A stretch of DNA of 64,000 nt from Candidatus Bathyarchaeia archaeon (GCA_038882955.1 JAVZNC010000002.1:160001-224000); one strand, 5' to 3'. Positions 1 through 11,441 are shown, counted from the first letter of the stretch. Numbers and translations are program-made. Notes: generated from the letters alone by a model not told the origin.

Positions 1-839
1 TCTTCTGTAACAATAGAAGCACCAACACGTTCAGCAACCTCGCCAGAAACCCGCAGCAAATCTAACGCTCGTCTAGCATCACCATGCTCAGCAGCAGCTA
101 ATGCAGCGCATAAGCTCAGCGCAGATTCAGACAAGGCGTTTTCGTTGAAAGCCATCTTGGCGCGCTCTAACAATATGTTCCTAAGTTCATTCGCGTCATA
201 GGGCCTAAAAACAATCTCCTCTTCACTAAGCGAACTAAAAACACGCGGATCAAAAAATTCCTTAAGCCGTAGATCATTCGAAATACCAATCAAAGATAGC
301 TTACTTTGCTGTAAAGTTTCATTTATCCTAGTTAATTCATATAGAAGCCCGTCTCCACGCGCTTTTATCAAAGCGTCTACCTCATCCAAAACCACTATAA
401 AAATCAGCTGCGCCGTATCCAGCGCGGTTCGAAATCTGTCAAAAACTTCACCAACAGATAATCCTGTGAAAGGCACGTATGTTCCAATGCTTTGGCACAG
501 ATTTGTGAAAACACGATATCCGGAGCCAGCCATCCGGCAATTTACATAACAAAACTTGACGGGTGCACCATACTCCTTCGCCTTAACTTCGAGGTGACTT
601 AAAACATATTTTGTAACAGCAGTCTTTCCAGTCCCTGTTTTGCCGTAAATAAAAACGTTTGAACAACGTTCCTTTTTTAAGACAGGAGCCACTTTTTCGC
701 CCAGTAGTCTAATTTGTTCCTCGCGATGTGGCAATCTGTTTGGCAAGTAATCATGCCGCAACACACTTCTATCTTTGAATATCTTCGCGTTGCCAATGAA
801 GTTCGTGAATAACTCGTCAAGAATTTTTGTGTCACTCAT
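1..839 (-). CDS. cdc6: Orc1/Cdc6 replication initiator (5' part; runs off window)
   Basis: Hand translation from ATG at 839: MSDTKILDELFTNFIGNAKIFKDRSVLRHDYLPNRLPHREEQI...IYGKTGTGKT (Walker A)...VVLDEVDAL (Walker B)...HGDARRALDLLRVSGEVAER; adjacent to ORB elements. Confidence 0.96.
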   Translation of the reverse strand, partial: MSDTKILDELFTNFIGNAKIFKDRSVLRHDYLPNRLPHREEQIRLLGEKVAPVLKKERCSNVFIYGKTGTGKTAVTKYVLSHLEVKAKEYGAPVKFCYVNCRMAGSGYRVFTNLCQSIGTYVPFTGLSVGEVFDRFRTALDTAQLIFIVVLDEVDALIKARGDGLLYELTRINETLQQSKLSLIGISNDLRLKEFFDPRVFSSLSEEEIVFRPYDANELRNILLERAKMAFNENALSESALSLCAALAAAEHGDARRALDLLRVSGEVAERVGASIVTE

Positions 840-1561: not shown

Positions 1562-2017
1562 GTGAATACACCTAGGTGCACAATGTTAATGCCTGCCCGA
1601 AAGATGCGAGTTGAGCTATTCGACGAAGACGGTAATCGCTATACAATATCATTCGAAGGTCAAATTACTAGAGAGAAGGCTCTTCGCCTTCTAGACCTAG
1701 TAGAACTCTTGGGCGGTGTGCCAACTAGCAGAGGCAACGAAACGAACAGGGGCGTTTTGGAAAATGATTTTTCTAAATACGCTAAGGTACGCGTTGTTGT
1801 TCAGAAGCACTTCCCGCTGGTGTGGTTTACATCACATGACGTTCAACTGGCTTACGAACAAGAATTTAAGGAGCCTATAGGGCTTAGCACAGTGGCAACA
1901 TACCTTTCCAGAATGTCAAGTAAGGGCTTACTCCTGCGGGCGGGGGCTTCAAGAACCCTAAAGTACAAGTTGGCAACCAGCTATCCGAAGGCAATTATTG
2001 AAAAGCAAACACCTTAA
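1562..2017 (+). CDS. Origin-adjacent hypothetical protein: small N-terminal domain plus C-terminal winged helix (start probably 1583/1589)
   Basis: C-term WFTSHDVQLAYEQEFKEPIGLSTVATYLSRMSSKGLLLR..KYKL has a wHTH pattern. Confidence 0.75.
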   Translation: MNTPRCTMLMPARKMRVELFDEDGNRYTISFEGQITREKALRLLDLVELLGGVPTSRGNETNRGVLENDFSKYAKVRVVVQKHFPLVWFTSHDVQLAYEQEFKEPIGLSTVATYLSRMSSKGLLLRAGASRTLKYKLATSYPKAIIEKQTP

Positions 2018-2019
2018 AT

Positions 2020-2748
2020 TTATGATTGCTGCTGGGCGGGCTCGCTTTCCGTCCGCTTTAACAGCTTTCGCATCTCCTCTTTTACACTGTATTTAAATGG
2101 AATTCTACTAGTATCTCTGTCCAAATAGCCTTCCTCGTAGAGTTTCTTCATCAACCGCGCGGTGTGCTCCCTACTAAGCTTAATTCTCTCCTTTATTTCT
2201 GGCGCGGTTTTAGGGCCTTCAGAAGCCAGCATGTCCAGAACTGACACCTCCGTTTCAGTAAGCGGCGCCAAAGCCTTCTCCCGCTTTATAGGAATTGCTG
2301 CTTCAATTTTAGCATCTGAAATGACTGCAGGATGCTTTACTCGTTCCTCAACCATAGAAAGGCGCGCAGCCAAATCCCTTTGCATAGTCATGCTTTCCTG
2401 CAATGCTTTGGCTATTTCATCCACTTTCCTTGTAGTAACTTCTTTTTCACTTACTAATGAGCCGACTCTAGCCTCTAAAGACTCAATTTTCTTGCAAGCA
2501 TCCTCAGCTGCCTTCTTTGCGCTGTCACCTTTCGAGGCTGCGGCATCAACTTTATATGCAATTAAACTAACCCTTTCCGCTTCCTGCTTCAATTGCCTGT
2601 TAAAACTAAAAACTATGTCACCAACAACCGCTTTTGCACTTTCATATTCCTTTCGCACCTTCTGAAGCTGCCTATAATAGGCATAACAAACGGCAACGGT
2701 TAACGCTGCTAAGATTATGGTAAACACCCAAACTTCCACATCAACCAC
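2020..2748 (-). CDS. Membrane-anchored coiled-coil protein with C-terminal MarR-like winged HTH
   Basis: N-term TM (VWVFTIILAALTVAVCYAYY), ~110-aa heptad-rich segment, then LTETEVSVLDMLASEGPKTAPEIKERIKLSREHTARLMKKLYEEGYLDR. Confidence 0.8.
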   Translation of the reverse strand: MVDVEVWVFTIILAALTVAVCYAYYRQLQKVRKEYESAKAVVGDIVFSFNRQLKQEAERVSLIAYKVDAAASKGDSAKKAAEDACKKIESLEARVGSLVSEKEVTTRKVDEIAKALQESMTMQRDLAARLSMVEERVKHPAVISDAKIEAAIPIKREKALAPLTETEVSVLDMLASEGPKTAPEIKERIKLSREHTARLMKKLYEEGYLDRDTSRIPFKYSVKEEMRKLLKRTESEPAQQQS

Positions 2749-2777
2749 TTCCGTGATTCACTTGTGATTTACCTACA

Positions 2778-2793
2778 GACATCACACATCACA
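2778..2793 (+). repeat. 16-bp site GACATCACACATCACA, copy 1
   Basis: Exact match to 2850-2865 and 4897-4912. Confidence 0.85.
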
Positions 2794-2849
2794 GTTTACA
2801 TGTAAAGGATTTAAAGCTTATGTTATTTCTCAGCGTAAAATAACCTCAT

Positions 2850-2865
2850 GACATCACACATCACA
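2850..2865 (+). repeat. 16-bp site GACATCACACATCACA, copy 2
   Basis: Exact repeat 72 bp from copy 1. Confidence 0.85.
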
Positions 2866-2988
2866 AAAATGCGTAAACAGATGGCATGTTCAATGTTAAG
2901 GTAACGCCTTAATTTTGAACGTTTTTCCGATTTAAAGCCGATTTTTGCCAGCAGAAAAGTTAAGATAAAGGAGCATATAAAACTTTCA

Positions 2989-3004
2989 TGTGACTTGTGA
3001 TGTC
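2989..3004 (-). repeat. 16-bp site, inverted copy GACATCACAAGTCACA
   Basis: 14/16 match; overlaps stop codon of 3003..3470; embedded in inverted repeat ATGTGAC-N7-GTCACAT (2988-3008). Confidence 0.75.
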
Positions 3005-3470
3005 ACATATCGCTTGCCGAAGTATCTGATAGCTTTTTTAAGCTTGTTTCGAGTTCTTCTCTGATAATTTTTATGATTTTTAGGTTTTCACTTGTGTTTG
3101 CTATGCTTTTATGGGCCTCTACATATTCTTTTAACCTGTTTGCTATTTCGATGTAGGGGTCGAGAGTTGTACTTTCAAAAACGCCTAAGTATCCTAAAAG
3201 CAGTATGGTGTATATGGACTTTATGACGTTTCCTTTGGCCTGTTTTAAAGTTCTGTTGAATGCACCGCGGCTTATTTTCGCCTTTGTTAACCTCAATCTG
3301 GCTTTTTCATCGTAATTTAGGGTTTTTCCTGATATATTCTCGGCTAAAATGTCTATAAGTAACGTTTCAAGCTGCGTTTTCGTTAAGTGGCTATTTTTGT
3401 AGAGTAATTCTGCTATGGGGTCATTTAAAGAGTGTGTTAACCATAAGTGAATGTTTTCTTTCAGCTTCAA
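3003..3470 (-). CDS. Hypothetical HTH-like DNA-binding protein
   Basis: SHLTKTQLETLL...EKARLR..KISRGAFNRTLKQAKGNV helix-turn-helix-like pattern; TTG start. Confidence 0.7.
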   Translation of the reverse strand: MKLKENIHLWLTHSLNDPIAELLYKNSHLTKTQLETLLIDILAENISGKTLNYDEKARLRLTKAKISRGAFNRTLKQAKGNVIKSIYTILLLGYLGVFESTTLDPYIEIANRLKEYVEAHKSIANTSENLKIIKIIREELETSLKKLSDTSASDM

Positions 3471-3612
3471 ACTTTTTCAACCGCCGACCTTTTATATGAA
3501 TACAGATTTGTATACAAGGTCCCTTTAAACCTTGCTTAAAACATACGTTTCACATTTTTTGCAACGCAAATATTTTATTCTCAGGAGACCAGTGCATAAT
3601 AAGGGAAACTCG

Positions 3613-4785
3613 TTGACTTCTCAATTTAAGCCCGCAGAACGCCTAAAAAACGTAAAACCTTCTGGAATTCGCCGATTTTTCGCTTTAACCCAAGAAATGC
3701 CAGACGCGATCAACCTCAGCGTAGGGGAACCAGACTTTTCCCCTCCGCAACACGCGATAGAAATGGGTTTGAAAGCGGCGAAAGGGGGGAAAACACATTA
3801 CACTCCTACTAATGGCATCCCAGAGTTGCGCGAGGCATTAGCCAAAAAAGCCTTCCGTGAATACGGGCTTAACTATGACCCTAACTCAGAAATATTAATT
3901 ACATCAGGAGGGATTGAAGCCATTTTTCTGGCGCTTTTCGGCTTCGTAAATCCTGGTGATGAAGTTTTGATTCCAGATCCAGGTTTTGTGTGCTACGAGC
4001 CCTGCGTTCGCTTGGCGGGGGGTGTTCCGGTTTCTGTTCCTTTAGTGGAGGAAAATGGATTCAAGCCTTCTGTTGATAATGTGATGTCACTTATCACGGA
4101 TAGGTCACGTGTGATTATTCTGAACTATCCTAACAATCCTACTGGGGCAGCCCTTTCCTTTGATGATGCGGCGGTGTTGGCGAAGATTGCTGTTGAGCGT
4201 GACCTTATTGTGATTTCTGATGAGGTTTATGAAAAAATACTCTATGATGGGACTAAACACTATTGCCTTGCAACCTTCCCTGGGATGCGTGAACGCACAT
4301 TGGTTGTTAATTCCTTTTCCAAGACTTACGCGATGACAGGGCTGCGTATTGGCTTCGTTTACGGTCCTAAAGAGCTAATTTCGCCTCTGTGGCTGATACA
4401 CCAGCATACAATTGCATGCATTAATAGTATCACTCAGTATGTTGCGTTGGCTGCGCTGGAGGGACCGCAAGACTTTGTAGAGGAGATGGTTGTGGAGTTT
4501 GATAGGAGAAGGCAAATGGTTTGTAAGAGGCTTAATGAGATGGGAAGACTTAACTGCTCACTTCCAAAAGGCGCTTTTTACGTTTTCCCTAGCATCAAAA
4601 GTTTTGGTGTGCCTTCAGAACAGTTTGCAGAGTACCTTGCAAGACAAGCGCGTGTACTCACTGTTCCAGGATCTTCTTTCGGGCGTTACGGTGAGGGATA
4701 CATAAGAATTTCTTATGCAGCAGCGTATGAACAATTAGAAGAAGCAATGGATAGAATAGAGAAGGCAATTAGGAAACTGCAATAA
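3613..4785 (+). CDS. PLP-dependent aminotransferase class I/II (aspartate aminotransferase family)
   Basis: NLSVGEPDF, NYPNNPTG, SDEVYE, NSFSKTYAMTGLRIG; TTG at 3613 after purine-rich RBS preferred over 3532. Confidence 0.93.
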   Translation: MTSQFKPAERLKNVKPSGIRRFFALTQEMPDAINLSVGEPDFSPPQHAIEMGLKAAKGGKTHYTPTNGIPELREALAKKAFREYGLNYDPNSEILITSGGIEAIFLALFGFVNPGDEVLIPDPGFVCYEPCVRLAGGVPVSVPLVEENGFKPSVDNVMSLITDRSRVIILNYPNNPTGAALSFDDAAVLAKIAVERDLIVISDEVYEKILYDGTKHYCLATFPGMRERTLVVNSFSKTYAMTGLRIGFVYGPKELISPLWLIHQHTIACINSITQYVALAALEGPQDFVEEMVVEFDRRRQMVCKRLNEMGRLNCSLPKGAFYVFPSIKSFGVPSEQFAEYLARQARVLTVPGSSFGRYGEGYIRISYAAAYEQLEEAMDRIEKAIRKLQ

Positions 4786-4794
4786 GCGTTAAAA

Positions 4795-5628
4795 CTACAA
4801 GCGCTTAGCGCTTTCCTTCAGTTCATCAAAAAGTTCTGGACGTAAATCTTTAAGTGTAGGCACAAATACTTCCACAGGTTTAACGTCACCGTAATTGACA
4901 TCACACATCACAAGGTCTTCTTCATCGTACTTCGCTTGAGTGAGCACCTTACCATTTGGTCCAACAAGTCTACTTCCTCCCCAGAATTGTAGTCCATCTT
5001 CTATGCCGACGAGATTTACATATGCCAAGAGCACAGCGTTTTCCATTGCCCTAGCAACGGTCAACGTTTCGAAAAAGGTTTTCCTAACTGCCGGCGAAGC
5101 TGATATGCAAACTATCAAGTGGGCACCCTTAAGGCGTGTGAGCCTGCTTAATTCTGGAAAGAAAATGTCATAGCAAATTATTAGCCCAACCTTCCCAAGA
5201 TTTGTGGCGAGCGCCACCGCCTCATAGCCTGGTCTAAAATATCTTTTTTCCTCAAAGACGCTGTGCGTTGGGAGGTGCATCTTGCGATATTTGCCAACAA
5301 AACCTTCGGGGCCTACGAGCACTGCTGAATTGTAGATTGTTGCCTTTGTTTTTTCGCTTAGCTCTGGCATGCCAAAGACTACGTATGCTCCCGCCTTTTT
5401 TGCCATTTTTTCGATAGCCTTTGTTGATGGACCAGGTATTGTTTCTGCTAAATTGTATATTTCATCGCGAACCACGTAGCCAGTTAGCGAAAGCTCTGGG
5501 AAAATTATAAGGTCCGCCTTCTTCTTTGCAGCATTTGTTATAATTTTTTCCATTTTTCTCATGTTTTTTTCCTTATCTGCCCGGTAGCAGCTTATTTGGG
5601 CGAGCGCAACCTTGAAATTCTCCTTCAT
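4795..5628 (-). CDS. Nitrilase/carbon-nitrogen hydrolase, candidate glutaminase subunit for NadE
   Basis: E-K-C triad: FPELS, YRKMHLP, ICYDIFFPE; directly downstream of nadE. Confidence 0.9.
   Translation of the reverse strand: MKENFKVALAQISCYRADKEKNMRKMEKIITNAAKKKADLIIFPELSLTGYVVRDEIYNLAETIPGPSTKAIEKMAKKAGAYVVFGMPELSEKTKATIYNSAVLVGPEGFVGKYRKMHLPTHSVFEEKRYFRPGYEAVALATNLGKVGLIICYDIFFPELSRLTRLKGAHLIVCISASPAVRKTFFETLTVARAMENAVLLAYVNLVGIEDGLQFWGGSRLVGPNGKVLTQAKYDEEDLVMCDVNYGDVKPVEVFVPTLKDLRPELFDELKESAKRL
4897..4912 (+). repeat. 16-bp site GACATCACACATCACA, copy 3 (inside nitrilase CDS)
   Basis: Exact match to the intergenic copies. Confidence 0.75.
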
Positions 5629-5644
5629 TTTTTCATCTCCAAAT

Positions 5645-6487
5645 TTAACACACATCCCTTGGGAATCTGAAATCTGCGCCAACAGTCCTATATCCAATTT
5701 TCGCCGTCAATGGCATCCGCCTTTTGTGTTCAGTGGCAAGCCATCTGCGCTTAATTTTTTCGACAAAATCCTCCCTTATGCCTAACTGATTTGCGATTTC
5801 TCTAGTTTCCATGAAATGCTCCAAGCCATAAAGAATCAAATCCAAGACTTCATACTTTATTCCCAACTCCTCTTCTGCAAGCTGTCCCTGCCAGAGTCCC
5901 GGCGATGAAGGTTTTGCTACGATTTCTTCTGGAACACCTATATGCCGTGCAAGTTTTCGAACTTGCGTCTTGTATAAGTCCATGATTGGCGATATGTCTG
6001 CTGCTGCGTCTCCCCACTTTGTAAAGTAGCCCATCATTGTTTCTGACTTGTCTGAACTTCCACATACAAGCATGTTAAGCTTGTTTGCGTAATAGTAGAT
6101 ATAAATCATCCTGGCGCGCGCTTTCATGTTACCCTTGCAGAGATTATCTTGCGCATCAAAGCTTGGTATTGAGCTGTAAAGGGCTTTTAAGACTGGTGTA
6201 ATGTCGATTTTCTCCATTTTTAGGCCGAACTTTTTGGCGACGGCTTCTGCGTGCTTGATATCCTTAACGTTGTATGTTTCTTTTTCTGGCAGCATAAGCC
6301 CAAAAACATTTTTTCCGCCTATTGCGAGTGCAGATAGCGCCGCTACTGTACAACTGTCAATGCCTCCTGATAACCCTAGAACTATGCCATTCACACCAGA
6401 TTTTTTCACATAATCTCTTATGAAGCGTTTTATTTTTGCTTCAACTTCGTTCCAGTCCAATTCAAGAATGTCCAAAGTTAACCTCAA
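5645..6487 (-). CDS. nadE: NAD+ synthetase (single-domain)
   Basis: GLSGGIDS PP-loop, GNMKARARM, GYFTKWGD, DLYKTQV, KPSSPGL. Confidence 0.96.
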   Translation of the reverse strand: MRLTLDILELDWNEVEAKIKRFIRDYVKKSGVNGIVLGLSGGIDSCTVAALSALAIGGKNVFGLMLPEKETYNVKDIKHAEAVAKKFGLKMEKIDITPVLKALYSSIPSFDAQDNLCKGNMKARARMIYIYYYANKLNMLVCGSSDKSETMMGYFTKWGDAAADISPIMDLYKTQVRKLARHIGVPEEIVAKPSSPGLWQGQLAEEELGIKYEVLDLILYGLEHFMETREIANQLGIREDFVEKIKRRWLATEHKRRMPLTAKIGYRTVGADFRFPRDVC

Positions 6488-6587: not shown

Positions 6588-6836
6588 ATGGGACGTAGAA
6601 GAAGAAAAGTCGTTCGCATTCCTAAGAAGCGTTTGCCTAGGTTCTTCTCTTGCCCTAGATGTGGAAAGGAAACTGTTAGGGTTGAAATATTGCGTGAAGA
6701 AGGCCGCGCTGTAGTGGGCTGTAGCAATTGTGGCTTGAAAGAAGAGTTCCAAGTAAAACCTGCACAAGCGGAAGTGGACGTCTACTGCATGTTCACTGAC
6801 AAAATCTACTCTGGCGCCAGAAGCGCAACGGCATGA
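6588..6836 (+). CDS. elf1: Transcription elongation factor Elf1
   Basis: MGRRRRK...FSCPRC...CSNC...VDVYCMFTD. Confidence 0.9.
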
Positions 6837-7615
6837 AACCCAGTATGACGGAGGTTGATGTTATGGTAGGGCCTATCGAGAAATATTTGCTTGAAAAAAT
6901 CGAGTCAGAAGGCGCAATTCACCTAACGCTTATAGACCCCGAAAAAGTTACAGCCTCGCAAGCAGCTAGGGCTGCATACAAAGCCAAGCTTAGCGGAACC
7001 GCAGGAATAATGGTTGGCGGATCAACACTGTCATCGAGTAACCACCTTGACAGCGTTTTAAAGGCTATTAAGCGCGCCGTTGATGTGCCGGTAATCTTGT
7101 TTCCTGGCAATGTGAATGGGATAAGTCGTCATGCAGATGCAATATGGTTTATGTCGCTTTTAAATTCAACAGACCCATACTTTATTGTAGGGGCTCAAAT
7201 TTTAGGGGCGCCCCTTGTTAAGAAGTACCGCTTAGAGCCTATACCTATGGGTTATATAATAGTCGGAGAGGGGGGAACAGCAGGTATAGTTGGTAAGGCT
7301 ATTCCAGTTCCATATGATAAACCTGAAGTTGCTGTTGCACATGCCTTGGCGGGACAGTATTTGGGCATGCGCTTCATTTATTTAGAGGCGGGGTCTGGCG
7401 CGAAAAGGCCCGTTCCTTCTGATATGATACGCGCTGTTAAAAGGTATATCAATGTTCCGCTAATAGTTGGTGGTGGCATAAGGTCAAGGGAGCAAGCTTT
7501 GACGGCAGCGTCTGCTGGCGCTGATGTTATAGTTACTGGTAACATCGTTGAGAGGGCTGACCTTAAGCATAGAGTTTCCGAGATTATTGAGGGTATAAGA
7601 CGCTTTAGGTTGTGA
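6833..7615 (+). CDS. Geranylgeranylglyceryl phosphate synthase (start possibly 6863)
   Basis: [42 protein letters not shown]. Confidence 0.95.
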
Positions 7616-8018: not shown

Positions 8019-11000
8019 TTGCAATTGAACAGTCAAATGAGCGAAGCCTATCATCGATACGTTCAAAGCCTTGAAAACGAATTTTGGCGGCTGTATAACA
8101 TAAGCGAAAGGACGCGAGAAAAGGGGTTAGACCCGGCGCTTAAGCCGGAATGCAAAGTTGCACGGGATCTAGCTGATCTTGTGGAGGGGCTAGTTGGACC
8201 GAAGGGCGTTGCCGAAAGCATCAGAAAACTAAGCGAAAAACTTCCAAGGGAAGAACTGGCCTTCAAAATCGCAGAGGAAATAGTTTATGGCAAATTTGGG
8301 CATATGGAAGCCGAAGCGGCGGCAGACCAAGCCATAAGGACGGCCCTTGCAATATTAACGGAGGGGCTTACCGCCGCGCCGCTTCAAGGAGTAGCAAAAG
8401 TGAAAATTAAGACAAATTTTGACAGAACACGTTATTTAGCGATATACTTTGCTGGTCCAATTAGGTCTGCTGGCGGAACAGACCAAGCTTTAACATTAAT
8501 TATCGGCGATTTTGTAAGACGTCTTCTCGGGCTTGATCGCTACAAGCCTCGAGAGGAGGAAATGCTTCGCTTTATTGAGGAGATGCGTCTTTACGAGCGC
8601 TCTGTTGGGCGCTTCCAGTATCACGTTTCCGACGAAGAATTGTTGAAGGCGCTTCAGTGGTTGCCCGTTGAGGTAACTGGCACGGAATCAAACCCATTTG
8701 AAGTTTCCACTTTTCGCAATCTTTCACGTATAGAAACCAACCGTGTTAGGGGTGGCGCCTTACGGGTTGTGAATGACGGCGTCGTTGGTAGGGCACCTAA
8801 AGTCTATGCGATTGTTGAGAAGCTAGGTATTCAAGGGTGGGATTGGCTAAAGGAATTCCGCAAAAAATCCGAGAATAAATCTTCTGGATTTATGGACGAC
8901 GTTATTGCTGGGCGGCCCATCTTTTGCTTTGCCTCAAGTCGTGGCGGCTTCCGTTTAAGATATGGGCGGGCACGCAACACTGGATTGGCTGCCGTAGGCG
9001 TCCACCCAGCGACAATGCTTATACTTAATGGTTTTCTTGCGGCAGGCACCCAAATGCGCCTCGAGCTTCCAGGGAAAGGCGGCATCGCGGTTCCTGTCGA
9101 TTTTTTGGAGCCTCCAGTAGTGCTTTTGAAGGATGGCTCTGTTGTCCGTGTAACTTTGGAAAATGTTAACGCAGTGAAGGACCAAGTCTCCAAGGTTCTG
9201 TTTCTTGGGGACATCCTGATCAGTTTTGGAGATTTTCTGTACAATAGTAAGGCGCTTTTGCCTTCGGGGTATGTTGAGGAGTGGTGGGTTGAAGATCTGA
9301 GGCGGGCGATTGCAGAAAGGTTTAATGGGGACGTACGCAAGGCTTCTGAGGCTGTTTGTATCCCCGTCGATAGGCTTAACGCGTTTTTGAAGGACCCTTT
9401 TGTTAACAAACCTACAATAAAGGAGACGGTTGACGCTTCATTGGTATTGCATGTACCTCTTCATCCAGCGTTTACGTTTTTCTGGTCTAATCTTGCTTCG
9501 GCTGAAGATGTTAAGATGCTTAGGGCGTGGCTTGTCAATTCAAGGGTGAAGTATGAGAATGGTTTAATTAAAGAAATTGTTGGTGATGATGATCCGAACG
9601 TTAAGCGTGCTTTAGAAGCGATTTATCTGCCCCATAAAGTCCTTGGCGACAAGATTGTTATTGAGGGTGAGGATGCACATGCTTTTGCTGTTTGTTTGCG
9701 CTACGGTTCGACGGAGAATGTGAACCTGCCATCTGACAAGCCAATTACCAAAGTGGTTAGTGCGCTTTCTGGGATTGAAATAAGGGATAAGTCTCCCACT
9801 TTTGTTGGCGCGAGGATGGGGCGTCCAGAAAAGGCAAAAAGGCGAGAGATGAAACCGCTTGTTCATGTTCTGTTTCCAGTTGGTCTGGGGGGCGGTTCTC
9901 AAAGAGACATTGTTGAGGCGGCAAGAAGGGAGCCTTACTCTGTGGATGTTGTTAAACGCAAGTGTCCATCATGCAACTCTTTTACATTTAGGATAAAGTG
10001 CCCTAGTTGTGGGGCAGAAACACTCCTGGAGAGAATCTGTCCGAAATGCAGCAGAAATCTGAAAGAAAACGAGTGTCCGGTCTGTAAAGTACCAGCTAAA
10101 ACTTACCAAAGACAAATTTTTAACTTTAAGGAAATGCTTGAAAAAGCCTGTGTCAGTCTTGGAGTTTCCGTTCCTAAGGTTTTGAAAGGCGTAAAAGGCT
10201 TAACAAATGAAACGAAGACTCCGGAAATTTTAGAGAAAGGTGTTCTTCGTGCAAAGTATGATTTGTCCGTTTACAAGGATGGGACAATACGCTTTGACGC
10301 CACAAACGCGCCTTTGACGCATTTTAAACCCTCTGAAATTGGCGTGTCCCACGAAAAGCTTAGGCAAATGGGCTATACGCATGACATTTTTGGAGCGCCG
10401 CTAACTAGCGACGACCAAGTATGCGAGTTGAAAGTACAGGATGTTATTATCCCGTTAAAGTGTGGTGAATACTTTGTTCGGGTTGCAAACTTTATCGATG
10501 AACTTTTGATCAAGGTTTACGGGCTTGCTCCATACTACAACATAAAGCGCATGGAAGAGCTTGTGGGGCATCTTGTTGTCGGTTTAGCTCCTCACACGTC
10601 GGTTGGAATTTTGGGGCGCATTATCGGCTTTACAACCCTAAATGTCTGTTACGCGCATCCAATATGGCATTCTGCAAAACGTAGGGACTGCGACGGCGAC
10701 GAAGACGCCTTAATGCTTGCGCTGGATACTCTAATCAACTTTTCCCGAGAATACTTGCCATCACAGATAGGTGGAATTATGGATGCCCCGCTGCTTCTAA
10801 TTCCTGTTGTTAATACGGCTGAAGTTCAGAGGCAAGCCCATGACTTTGATGTTGCAAGCGAATATCCCTTAGAATTTTATGAGAAAACTTGGAACGGAAC
10901 CGAGCCCAAACAGGTAAGCAGCATCATAGACCTTGTTGGGCATAGGCTTGGAACAGGGGCGCAGTTCGAAGGTTTCAAATTTACAATTCCAGTTTCAAAT

Positions 11001-11441
11001 ATAAACTATGGAAACCCTGAAAGCGCTTACAAACGGCTTAAGACCATGGTTGATAAGTTAAACAGCCAGCTTGAACTAGCCGAGAAAATTGAAGCAGTAA
11101 ACGCCAGAAAAGTAGCTTTGAAAGTGTTAACAAAACATTTTATGCGTGATATCGCTGGGAATATGCGCGCATTCTCCGCGCAAGGCGTTAGATGCAAATC
11201 ATGCAACAAACGCTATCGCCGAATCCCACTCCGCGGCGTCTGTACCCATTGTGGAGGGCAATTGACCCTAACTGTTTACCGCGGCGGCATCGAAAAATAC
11301 TTCGAGGCTGCACAAAACTTGGTTGAAAAATACAGACTGCCACAGTACTACGCTCAGAGAATCCGACTCGTTAAAGAGGAAATTGCCTCTTTGTTCGAGA
11401 GCAAAAAACCGCGGCAAATCAGTTTGACGGACTTTTCTTAA
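8019..11441 (+). CDS. polC: DNA polymerase D large subunit DP2
   Basis: AGPIRSAGGT, FRLRYGRAR, RMGRPEKA, KDGTIRFDATN, HSAKRRDCDGDED, C-terminal Zn finger; no intein. Confidence 0.98.
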   Translation: MQLNSQMSEAYHRYVQSLENEFWRLYNISERTREKGLDPALKPECKVARDLADLVEGLVGPKGVAESIRKLSEKLPREELAFKIAEEIVYGKFGHMEAEAAADQAIRTALAILTEGLTAAPLQGVAKVKIKTNFDRTRYLAIYFAGPIRSAGGTDQALTLIIGDFVRRLLGLDRYKPREEEMLRFIEEMRLYERSVGRFQYHVSDEELLKALQWLPVEVTGTESNPFEVSTFRNLSRIETNRVRGGALRVVNDGVVGRAPKVYAIVEKLGIQGWDWLKEFRKKSENKSSGFMDDVIAGRPIFCFASSRGGFRLRYGRARNTGLAAVGVHPATMLILNGFLAAGTQMRLELPGKGGIAVPVDFLEPPVVLLKDGSVVRVTLENVNAVKDQVSKVLFLGDILISFGDFLYNSKALLPSGYVEEWWVEDLRRAIAERFNGDVRKASEAVCIPVDRLNAFLKDPFVNKPTIKETVDASLVLHVPLHPAFTFFWSNLASAEDVKMLRAWLVNSRVKYENGLIKEIVGDDDPNVKRALEAIYLPHKVLGDKIVIEGEDAHAFAVCLRYGSTENVNLPSDKPITKVVSALSGIEIRDKSPTFVGARMGRPEKAKRREMKPLVHVLFPVGLGGGSQRDIVEAARREPYSVDVVKRKCPSCNSFTFRIKCPSCGAETLLERICPKCSRNLKENECPVCKVPAKTYQRQIFNFKEMLEKACVSLGVSVPKVLKGVKGLTNETKTPEILEKGVLRAKYDLSVYKDGTIRFDATNAPLTHFKPSEIGVSHEKLRQMGYTHDIFGAPLTSDDQVCELKVQDVIIPLKCGEYFVRVANFIDELLIKVYGLAPYYNIKRMEELVGHLVVGLAPHTSVGILGRIIGFTTLNVCYAHPIWHSAKRRDCDGDEDALMLALDTLINFSREYLPSQIGGIMDAPLLLIPVVNTAEVQRQAHDFDVASEYPLEFYEKTWNGTEPKQVSSIIDLVGHRLGTGAQFEGFKFTIPVSNINYGNPESAYKRLKTMVDKLNSQLELAEKIEAVNARKVALKVLTKHFMRDIAGNMRAFSAQGVRCKSCNKRYRRIPLRGVCTHCGGQLTLTVYRGGIEKYFEAAQNLVEKYRLPQYYAQRIRLVKEEIASLFESKKPRQISLTDFS

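Follow-up and report, generated by a model that had tools for sequence, protein, structure and literature searches.

A conserved composite DNA element clustered around a three-gene module beside a putative replication origin in Bathyarchaeia

Background

Chromosome organisation and segregation in archaea remain largely open subjects, and for Bathyarchaeia, an abundant uncultured class, we know of no work on either. In bacteria, the parS sites of ParB and the ram sites of RacA are specific sequences that are concentrated next to the origin and tolerated within genes, including the gene of the binding protein itself. Here we describe a short DNA element that is repeated within 2.1 kb of the genome of a Candidatus Bathyarchaeia archaeon (assembly G000; 1,537,843 bp in 31 contigs), at a locus holding three genes, designated A, B and C, next to cdc6 and a putative replication origin. 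The stretch analysed, referred to as the window, is the 64,000 nucleotides (nt) from position 160001 to 224000 of contig C2, and coordinates are counted from its first letter. An earlier note on the window had pointed to a 16-mer repeated near the origin, and had proposed, with plasmid centromeres as an analogy, that it forms parS- or ram-like sites.

Three described systems come closest. SegB of the Sulfolobales is a ribbon-helix-helix protein that binds a 13-bp palindrome, TCTAGA-S-TCTAGA, at 32-49 chromosomal sites and is encoded next to the ParA-like SegA; about 83% of the sites are intragenic, and they cluster near segAB, including its own promoter (PMC12284271). The omega protein, the ParB of pSM19035, recognises WATCACW heptads in contiguous runs of 7-10, direct and inverted, which overlap promoters and act as both operator and centromere, four or more heptads being needed to activate ParA (PMC9499535). 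TrmBL1/Tgr of the Thermococcales, a winged-helix protein of the TrmB family, reads the TGM site TATCAC-N5-GTGATA; a site downstream of the TATA box and over the transcription start represses, and one upstream of the TFB recognition element (BRE) and TATA box activates (PMC4158304). The resemblance to omega sites proposed in the earlier note holds for the 7-bp step, the ATCAC core (WATCACW against CATCACA here), the mixture of direct and inverted units and the overlap with a promoter, and we regard the similarity of the cores as analogy, not homology.

Results

The 16-mer GACATCACACATCACA occurs exactly at 2778, 2850 and 4897 on the plus strand, and an inverted copy with two mismatches lies at 2989-3004, all as first located. 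With up to three mismatches allowed, the window contains four matches against 0.29 expected, a number reached in one of 100 shuffles. Genome-wide there are three exact copies, all inside the same 2.1 kb, the expectation for any given 16-mer in a genome of this size being about 7e-4 exact copies; no further full copy follows position 4912 in the window or the genome, which extends the observation made earlier by eye. The only other cluster of near-copies in the assembly is on contig C26, and searches for tandem, head-to-head and related patterns likewise returned this locus and C26, together with 0-5 stray matches per pattern. Among 61 related genomes, TGTGAYNTGTGAY was present in 51, nearly always at this locus, and a reversed-pattern control gave 0-2 matches per genome. 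The shuffles, the genome counts and this control rule out a chance origin of the repeats. A wide regulon is also ruled out, because the tandem pattern is almost confined to the locus across the 61 genomes and the stray matches stay at the level of the control.

Our main comparison used 90 non-redundant related Bathyarchaeia loci, 85 of which had enough upstream sequence for counting elements E1 to E3 (called present at 11 or more of 13 core positions). It showed that the 16-mer corresponds to the first 16 bases of a 19-bp composite, TGTGAY-N-TGTGAY-RTCACA, built from three GTGAY half-sites: the first two run in the same direction, 7 bp from one to the next, and a third follows the second immediately in inverted orientation. 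The earlier description of the site as a tandem heptad, (ACATCAC)x2, is therefore replaced by a three-half-site composite that includes a palindrome. Five copies, E1 to E5, are present in the window and span 2.1 kb. In the 85 loci, the motif columns of E1 to E3 approach 2 bits and the flanks about 0 bit, and this conservation persists although gene B is only 41-60% identical to that of the window, the four closest loci excepted. Single half-sites reported earlier at 4080, 1829 and 2763 are all in the sequence; the one at 1829, a single unit within gene A, is treated as chance because it lies outside every bin enriched across the 90 loci.

Elements E1 and E2 were found in every one of the 85 loci, bracketing the TATA box of gene B. 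In the window, E1 (2775-2793, minus strand, TGTGATGTGTGATGTCTGT) holds the copy at 2778-2793 and E2 (2847-2865, minus strand, TGTGATGTGTGATGTCATG) the copy at 2850-2865. Between them lies the TATA-like heptamer TTTAAAT (2810-2816, minus strand), with an ACCATAA-like stretch on its 5' side (logo anchored on the heptamer, 71 loci), so that the bracketing of TTTAAA (2811-2816) noticed upstream of this gene, which encodes a transmembrane winged-helix protein, proves to be a conserved arrangement, with ACCATAA-n-(T/C)TTAAAT between E2 and E1. The first base of the heptamer precedes the first base of E1 by 20-25 nt (mode 22; 72/85 loci matched by a simple pattern), and E2 lies 57-76 nt upstream of E1 (median 69). 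In archaea, the centre of the TATA box usually precedes the transcription start by about 26 nt. Given this distance and the observed spacing, the start of gene B, predicted from the position of the TATA box, would fall inside E1. E1 and E2 thus occupy typical archaeal operator positions, one over the predicted start and the other upstream of BRE/TATA.

Downstream of E1, the leader of gene B contains two or three ATCACR units in steps of 10-11 nt, the last abutting the GAGG ribosome-binding site (31 upstream regions). In the window (2752-2768, minus strand), these are two inverted half-sites, which read CGTGAT (2752-2757) and TGTGAT (2763-2768) on the plus strand. Inverted half-sites about one helical turn apart, as for a winged-helix dimer, were not seen in the composites, whose half-sites either abut (GTGAY-RTCAC) or recur every 7 bp; a spacing of 10-11 nt is confined to the leader units.

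Element E3 (2989-3007, plus strand, TGTGACTTGTGATGTCACA), kept in 83/85 loci, has the stop codon of gene C (3003-3005) within its inverted half-site, and across the class the sites follow gene C rather than gene B, with the array centred on C. More distant families of the order keep the palindrome GTGAY-RTCAC, in some cases together with the extra unit. When C and B have another gene between them (loci of families f24, f28, f31 and f16), the stop codon of C and its flanks retain sites and the promoter of B has none; no GTGAY site was found at the B promoter in loci of f24, f28, f31, f16 and f19, against 85/85 in the window's order. Of 31 f24 genomes, 21 yielded gene C; in the resulting 21 loci, the palindrome covers the stop codon of C 18 times and lies 4-9 nt past it in the other three. 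A second site is located about 860-910 nt upstream of the C stop in 19 f24 loci, within the reading frame of NAD synthase in 17 of the 19. Further sites occur at about +550 to +591 in 13 loci, often with one more at about +888, and lie within a convergent HypF gene, whose coding sequence has the site at about +581 in 12 loci and in several also at +888. In f24 loci with B directly after C, a site is present at +247 to +352 in 7/8.

The distribution is therefore neither uniform nor restricted to promoters, the two patterns that would have spoken against the earlier proposal: the sites are confined to the locus and are kept within aminotransferase, NAD synthase and HypF genes. Counting the nitrilase gene described below, four unrelated genes, in different lineages, thus carry the same element at similar distances from C. 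Each of A, B and C was detected in 53-55 of the 61 relatives. The three genes nearly always occur or are missing as a set, although one or two of them went undetected in G048, G056 and G058; three genomes that are 92-98% complete (G045-G047) lack A, B, C and the motif altogether. Three f24 genomes with B and no detectable C have no TGTGAYRTCACA anywhere, and in two genomes with C the pattern occurs at C only. This joint absence is suggestive and not independent evidence, because the sites are physically linked to C and the bins are 76-94% complete.

Two elements lie inside enzyme genes. The 36-nt element E4 (4080-4115, minus strand, ATCACACGTGACCTATCCGTGATAAGTGACATCACA) is within a class I/II aminotransferase gene (3532-4785, plus strand; PF00155, expectation value (E) 1.8e-73), where it encodes VMSLITDRSRVI on the plus strand. 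Its right half, called present at 14 or more of 18 positions, is kept in 85/89 loci; E4 lies inside the aminotransferase coding sequence in 47 loci; in 41 it occurs in DNA where tblastn detects no such gene. When 41 aminotransferase genes are aligned by codon, third-position information peaks in codons 183-194, which correspond to E4 (1.28 bits; mean 0.65; z 3.7). Specifically, V184 is GTG in 41/41, S192 TCA in 41/41, R193 CGT in 38/41, V194 GTG in 40/41 and I188 ATC in 31/31, whereas the nearby P200 and L197 vary over four or five codons (four for P200). The DNA of E4 itself is thus under selection inside the coding sequence. A cause of this synonymous constraint at the level of RNA or translation is unlikely because E4 persists where the aminotransferase gene is missing.

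The loci without an aminotransferase gene could also be regarded as decayed pseudogenes that retain E4. Support for this is faint: tblastn gave possible remnants with E values of 0.005 and 0.027 in C26 and 0.001 in L038, made up in part of E4 itself, and none in L040, L048 and L049. We do not rely on this reading, because the equivalent site of f24 sits inside NAD synthase. Two other windows of the aminotransferase gene also have raised third-position conservation, 3661-3696 (codons 44-55, z 3.0), which has no GTGAY unit, and 4198-4233 (codons 223-234, z 2.5), which has a single TGTGAT unit.

Element E5 (4894-4912, minus strand, TGTGATGTGTGATGTCAAT) contains the copy at 4897 and lies at codons LVMCDVN of a nitrilase-family gene (4795-5697, minus strand), the host named in the earlier note, which matches CN_hydrolase (PF00795, E 2.7e-60). 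The expectation that this intragenic copy (4897-4912) would be conserved in relatives did not hold. A tandem site at the same nitrilase codons was found in 17/80 loci (14/43 with and 3/37 without the aminotransferase gene), including all four members of the genus. E5 is therefore a recurrent yet dispensable extra site: few loci carry it, and its distribution on the gene tree needs at least nine state changes, of which well-supported branches force five.

Gene C (3003-3470, minus strand) encodes an all-alpha protein of 155 amino acids with a mean column identity of 80% in 51 sequences, and 286 cluster representatives are related to it at E of 0.001 or below. The family has no match in Pfam or NCBIfam, a Pfam search with 51 members and 10 distant relatives was also empty, and against the PDB neither a sequence profile search nor Foldseek (at E of 0.001 or below) returned anything. 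In a wide fold search with the AlphaFold2 model, only helical hairpins matched residues 99-155, at Z of 7.5 or below, which is the background level for helices. A Sigma70_r4 label on 14% of a cluster (score 0.79) is a lead only. Among the candidate binders, C nevertheless tracks the sites best.

Gene B (2020-2748, minus strand; 242 amino acids), found in 53/61 relatives and in 100 of 151 genomes sampled from the class, encodes a hydrophobic anchor at the N-terminus, then a coiled coil of variable sequence and, at the C-terminus, a nearly invariant winged helix of the MarR/TrmB type (PF01047, E 6e-8, 32.9 bits, cut-off 24.6; PF01978, E 6.1e-7, 29.6 bits, cut-off 25.6). In the alignment, a short N-terminus is followed by a single hydrophobic helix, a basic stretch, and then the coiled coil and winged helix. 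These last two parts look cytoplasmic, and since the topology leaves no external domain, B reads as a tether rather than a sensor. A FNRxLKxxAE-like stretch is present in both B (residues ~47-58) and C (~69-80); comparing the profile of C with those of B and A gave no significant match (probability 3% and 0.1%, respectively). Another conserved pair, CGTGAY-n8-RTCACA, occurs within gene B at about +350 to +400 from its start in 45/90 loci, where it encodes RD..ASQE in the coiled-coil part; the window's genus does not have this pair.

Gene A (1562-2017, plus strand; ~145-151 amino acids), convergent with B and present in 54/61 relatives, encodes a beta-beta-alpha N-terminal domain and a generic winged helix; its AlphaFold2 model has a predicted local distance difference test score (pLDDT) of 71, with weak winged-helix fold matches (Cdc6 WH, RosR, Fur and PadR; E 5e-3 to 3e-2). 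A different motif, CTGTGAA-nn-TGTAAA, is conserved upstream of A in 69 loci, one copy lying about 110 nt upstream and the other directly after a CACCATAACAsCTATAAC box; the window has them at 1355-1368 and 1435-1455, and the proximal copy in its genus reads TTGTTAACTGCAAA. These TGTGAA-type sites may represent a separate type of operator for A. Pfam and NCBIfam scans of A, B and C found no ParB domain and no match to a ribbon-helix-helix family. About half of 22 loci have a 2.6-kb insert between A and B (L034:7054-9637; also L038, L040-L043, L045, L046 and L048), which encodes a 351-amino-acid open reading frame without family and a 519-amino-acid HerA-like ATPase (PF01935, E 3.4e-11) and is absent from the window's genome.

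At the left end of the window, the N-terminal part of cdc6 (3-839, minus strand) is separated from A by a 722-bp spacer (840-1561) that we consider a putative oriC. Two 25-nt arms of an inverted repeat that ends in GGGGTGC, TTTTCCAATGGAAAAATAGGGGTGC and its partner, occupy 1151-1175 and 1370-1394 within the spacer and flank a stretch of 194 nt. The arms look to us like origin recognition boxes occurring as a pair, and C26 shows boxes of a similar kind. The spacer itself has no GTGAY element, and E1 to E5 lie 1.2-3.4 kb from it, three of them touching or within coding sequences. The gene order cdc6-spacer-A-(insert)-B-C holds in 22/22 loci, and cdc6 is within 1.1-2.3 kb of B in loci of f4, f10, f11, f16, f17, f19, f28, f31 and f34; in one f35 locus it is also close, upstream of B on the C side. 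In f24 genomes (G197, G170, G181, G116 and G129), a single cdc6 homologue was found, 32-34% identical to that of the window and far from the B/C module; searches there did not recover the cdc6 type that adjoins the origin in the other families. Further along the window, the gene of the DNA polymerase D large subunit (DP2) is at 8019-11441, 5 kb from the array, and between the two lie a NAD synthase gene (5645-6487) and a PcrB-family gene (6833-7615).

Contig C26 (5871 bp), our first comparison for the locus, carries a divergent copy of all of it, in the order nitrilase end-C-sites-B-A-origin-like spacer-cdc6, with proteins 54-78% identical to those of the window. It is most likely a contig from another genus, because almost all other genomes searched have a single copy of B (four gave a second match) and the G000 bin has 6.1% contamination.

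Discussion

Elements that are conserved, restricted to one locus, fixed in position relative to the TATA box and to gene C, and selected as DNA within coding sequence are, in our judgement, best explained as the multi-site target of a protein encoded by the module, serving autoregulation together with an architectural or centromere-like role next to oriC; we give this reading a probability of roughly 0.6. Binding by a protein, the identity of the binder, repression, bridging and any role at the origin or in segregation are what we infer to account for these observations. One DNA-binding protein of the module would occupy E1 to E5, the candidates being C and/or the winged helix of B. E1, over the predicted start of B, would be in a repressor position, and E2, upstream of BRE/TATA, in that of an activator or a cooperative partner, so that occupancy of both could autoregulate B in the window's order, while E3 on the stop codon of C could gate read-through from C into B. 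The distant elements suggest a second, architectural role, because they are kept inside unrelated genes at fixed distances from C, which promoter occupancy leaves unexplained. They may be bridged with the others into one nucleoprotein complex marking the origin-proximal DNA, and the anchor of B could hold such a complex at the membrane.

Several observations weigh against this reading. The array is small (five elements in 2.1 kb) and one-sided, and two to three of its elements could be explained by promoter control alone; the nitrilase copy E5 is kept in few loci; and the co-absence of C and sites comes from three linked, incomplete cases. Gene C has no recognisable DNA-binding fold and a weak AlphaFold2 model (pLDDT 65) without a fold match. 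Half-sites 6-7 bp apart are too close for the usual geometry of a winged-helix dimer, so B on its own fits badly as the binder. No ParA-type gene lies next to the module; the genome's nine AAA_31 (PF13614) matches are all on contigs other than C2. The GC skew of C2 shows no clear turning point, and oriC is therefore placed by inference from cdc6 and the inverted repeats. Finally, in two single-contig f24 genomes, the module is 290-344 kb from the sole cdc6 detected. The suggestion of parS- or ram-like sites concentrated at the origin thus stands in part: the sites are restricted to one locus, conserved well beyond the genus and beside cdc6/oriC in most families examined, but they form one array on one side rather than around the origin, and neither ParA nor ParB is adjacent.

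Purely transcriptional operators would be one alternative, with one regulator of the module controlling C, B and perhaps neighbouring genes, the distant sites acting as looping auxiliaries as in lac and gal, and no architectural, origin or segregation role. The placement of E1 and E2 in all 85 loci, which is the arrangement of TrmBL1/Tgr, agrees with this, as do a short, local array centred on a regulator-like gene, the absence of adjacent ParA/ParB and the distance of the f24 module from cdc6. However, auxiliaries 0.6-2 kb away whose distance from C stays fixed in four host genes and in different families exceed the typical needs of autoregulation, the promoter of B has no site where C and B are separated, and the anchor of B lacks an extracellular sensing domain; on balance we consider operators alone rather unlikely, though the most serious of the competing explanations. 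Control of replication is a good deal less probable. Here, the array would bind a factor controlling the firing of the neighbouring origin or its sequestration (for instance at the membrane once initiation has occurred), without a part in segregation or gene control. The cdc6-oriC-A-B-C order of the 22 loci, the nearness of cdc6 to B in further families and the DNA polymerase D large subunit gene 5 kb away would suit it, but the oriC spacer is free of the element, f24 keeps the module with no cdc6 nearby, and some complete genomes of the order lack the module entirely.

Elements acting in RNA, as UGUGAU/AUCACA hairpins in the B leader or neighbouring mRNAs with effects on translation or stability, are very improbable. 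E1 could pair with the inverted ATCACR units of the leader, and A-to-G changes in these would keep G-U pairs; covariation cannot be drawn on, because the units do not vary. DNA rather than RNA is indicated by the position of E2 upstream of the promoter, by the orientation of E3, opposite to that of the others, and by E4, which is antisense to the aminotransferase mRNA and survives in non-coding DNA without its host gene; double-stranded DNA is the likely ligand because abutting inverted half-sites leave no loop for a hairpin. Least probable of all are remnants or ends of mobile elements, or locally duplicated recombination sites of the att or dif kind. Three exact 16-mers inside 2.1 kb and the 2.6-kb insertion between A and B in some genomes might evoke them, but the positions are conserved across the class at single-copy syntenic genes, no integrase or transposase is nearby, and the exactness of the 16-mer is a local feature of this genus within an ancient, degenerate motif.

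Our favoured reading, a module-encoded protein acting on an array with both regulatory and architectural functions, can be taken one step further. The A-B-C module and its array may constitute an undescribed archaeal system in which C nucleates on and bridges the elements and B ties the complex to the membrane, so that Bathyarchaeia would have a centromere or an anchor of the origin with neither ParA/ParB nor SegA/SegB encoded next to it. We offer this, the centromere role included, as a tentative and somewhat doubtful proposal. Literature searches on motif words and on Bathyarchaeia origins found no description of the motif or the module (the supplements of the SegB and omega papers were outside their scope), and the matches to motif words, among those listed, were eukaryotic cAMP response element (CRE) sites or primers.

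What is defined here is an ancient, class-wide cis element with specificity for a single locus, selected as DNA within four unrelated enzyme genes and arranged in a fixed geometry around a gene of no known family, next to a predicted DNA-binding protein, B, that is membrane-anchored and has no sensor domain. If the architectural reading is true, the locus would represent a new kind of organiser of the origin region; if the regulatory reading alone is true, it would show with unusual clarity that regulatory DNA can constrain synonymous sites throughout a class.

Compared with the described systems, the likeness is partial in each case. With TrmBL1/Tgr, the locus shares the ATCAC/GTGAT half-site, the placement of E1 and E2, and a protein, B, that passes the Pfam cut-offs for both TrmB and MarR, and autoregulation of B in the window's order is supported because E1 and E2 fit the operator logic of the TrmB family with a shared half-site. 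In contrast, TGM consists of one inverted repeat, its halves 5 nt apart, and marks the many promoters of a regulon, whereas the half-sites here abut or step by 7 bp at one locus, and B has a membrane anchor and coiled coil in place of a sugar-binding domain. Against the omega arrays, each element has three units, two at a 7-bp step and one abutting and inverted, rather than the four or more contiguous ones required there, and neither a ribbon-helix-helix protein nor ParA was detected in the module, the N-terminal domain of A being beta-beta-alpha and the model of C weak. The resemblance to parS and RacA/ram lies in sites beside an (inferred) origin irrespective of gene boundaries; the module has no homologue of ParB, ParA, RacA or DivIVA, and its sites cover 2 kb, compared with tens to hundreds of kb. 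As in the SegB system, a short specific motif forms a cluster at the module's own locus, including a promoter, with intragenic sites and a binder, putative here, encoded at the locus. The motif, TGTGAY-N-TGTGAY-RTCACA, does not follow the SegB-type pattern of palindrome and ribbon-helix-helix protein (no genome-wide search for SegB homologues was made), its sites all lie within 2.1 kb, and in place of an adjacent ParA-like gene, the locus has a winged-helix pair and the alpha-helical protein C.

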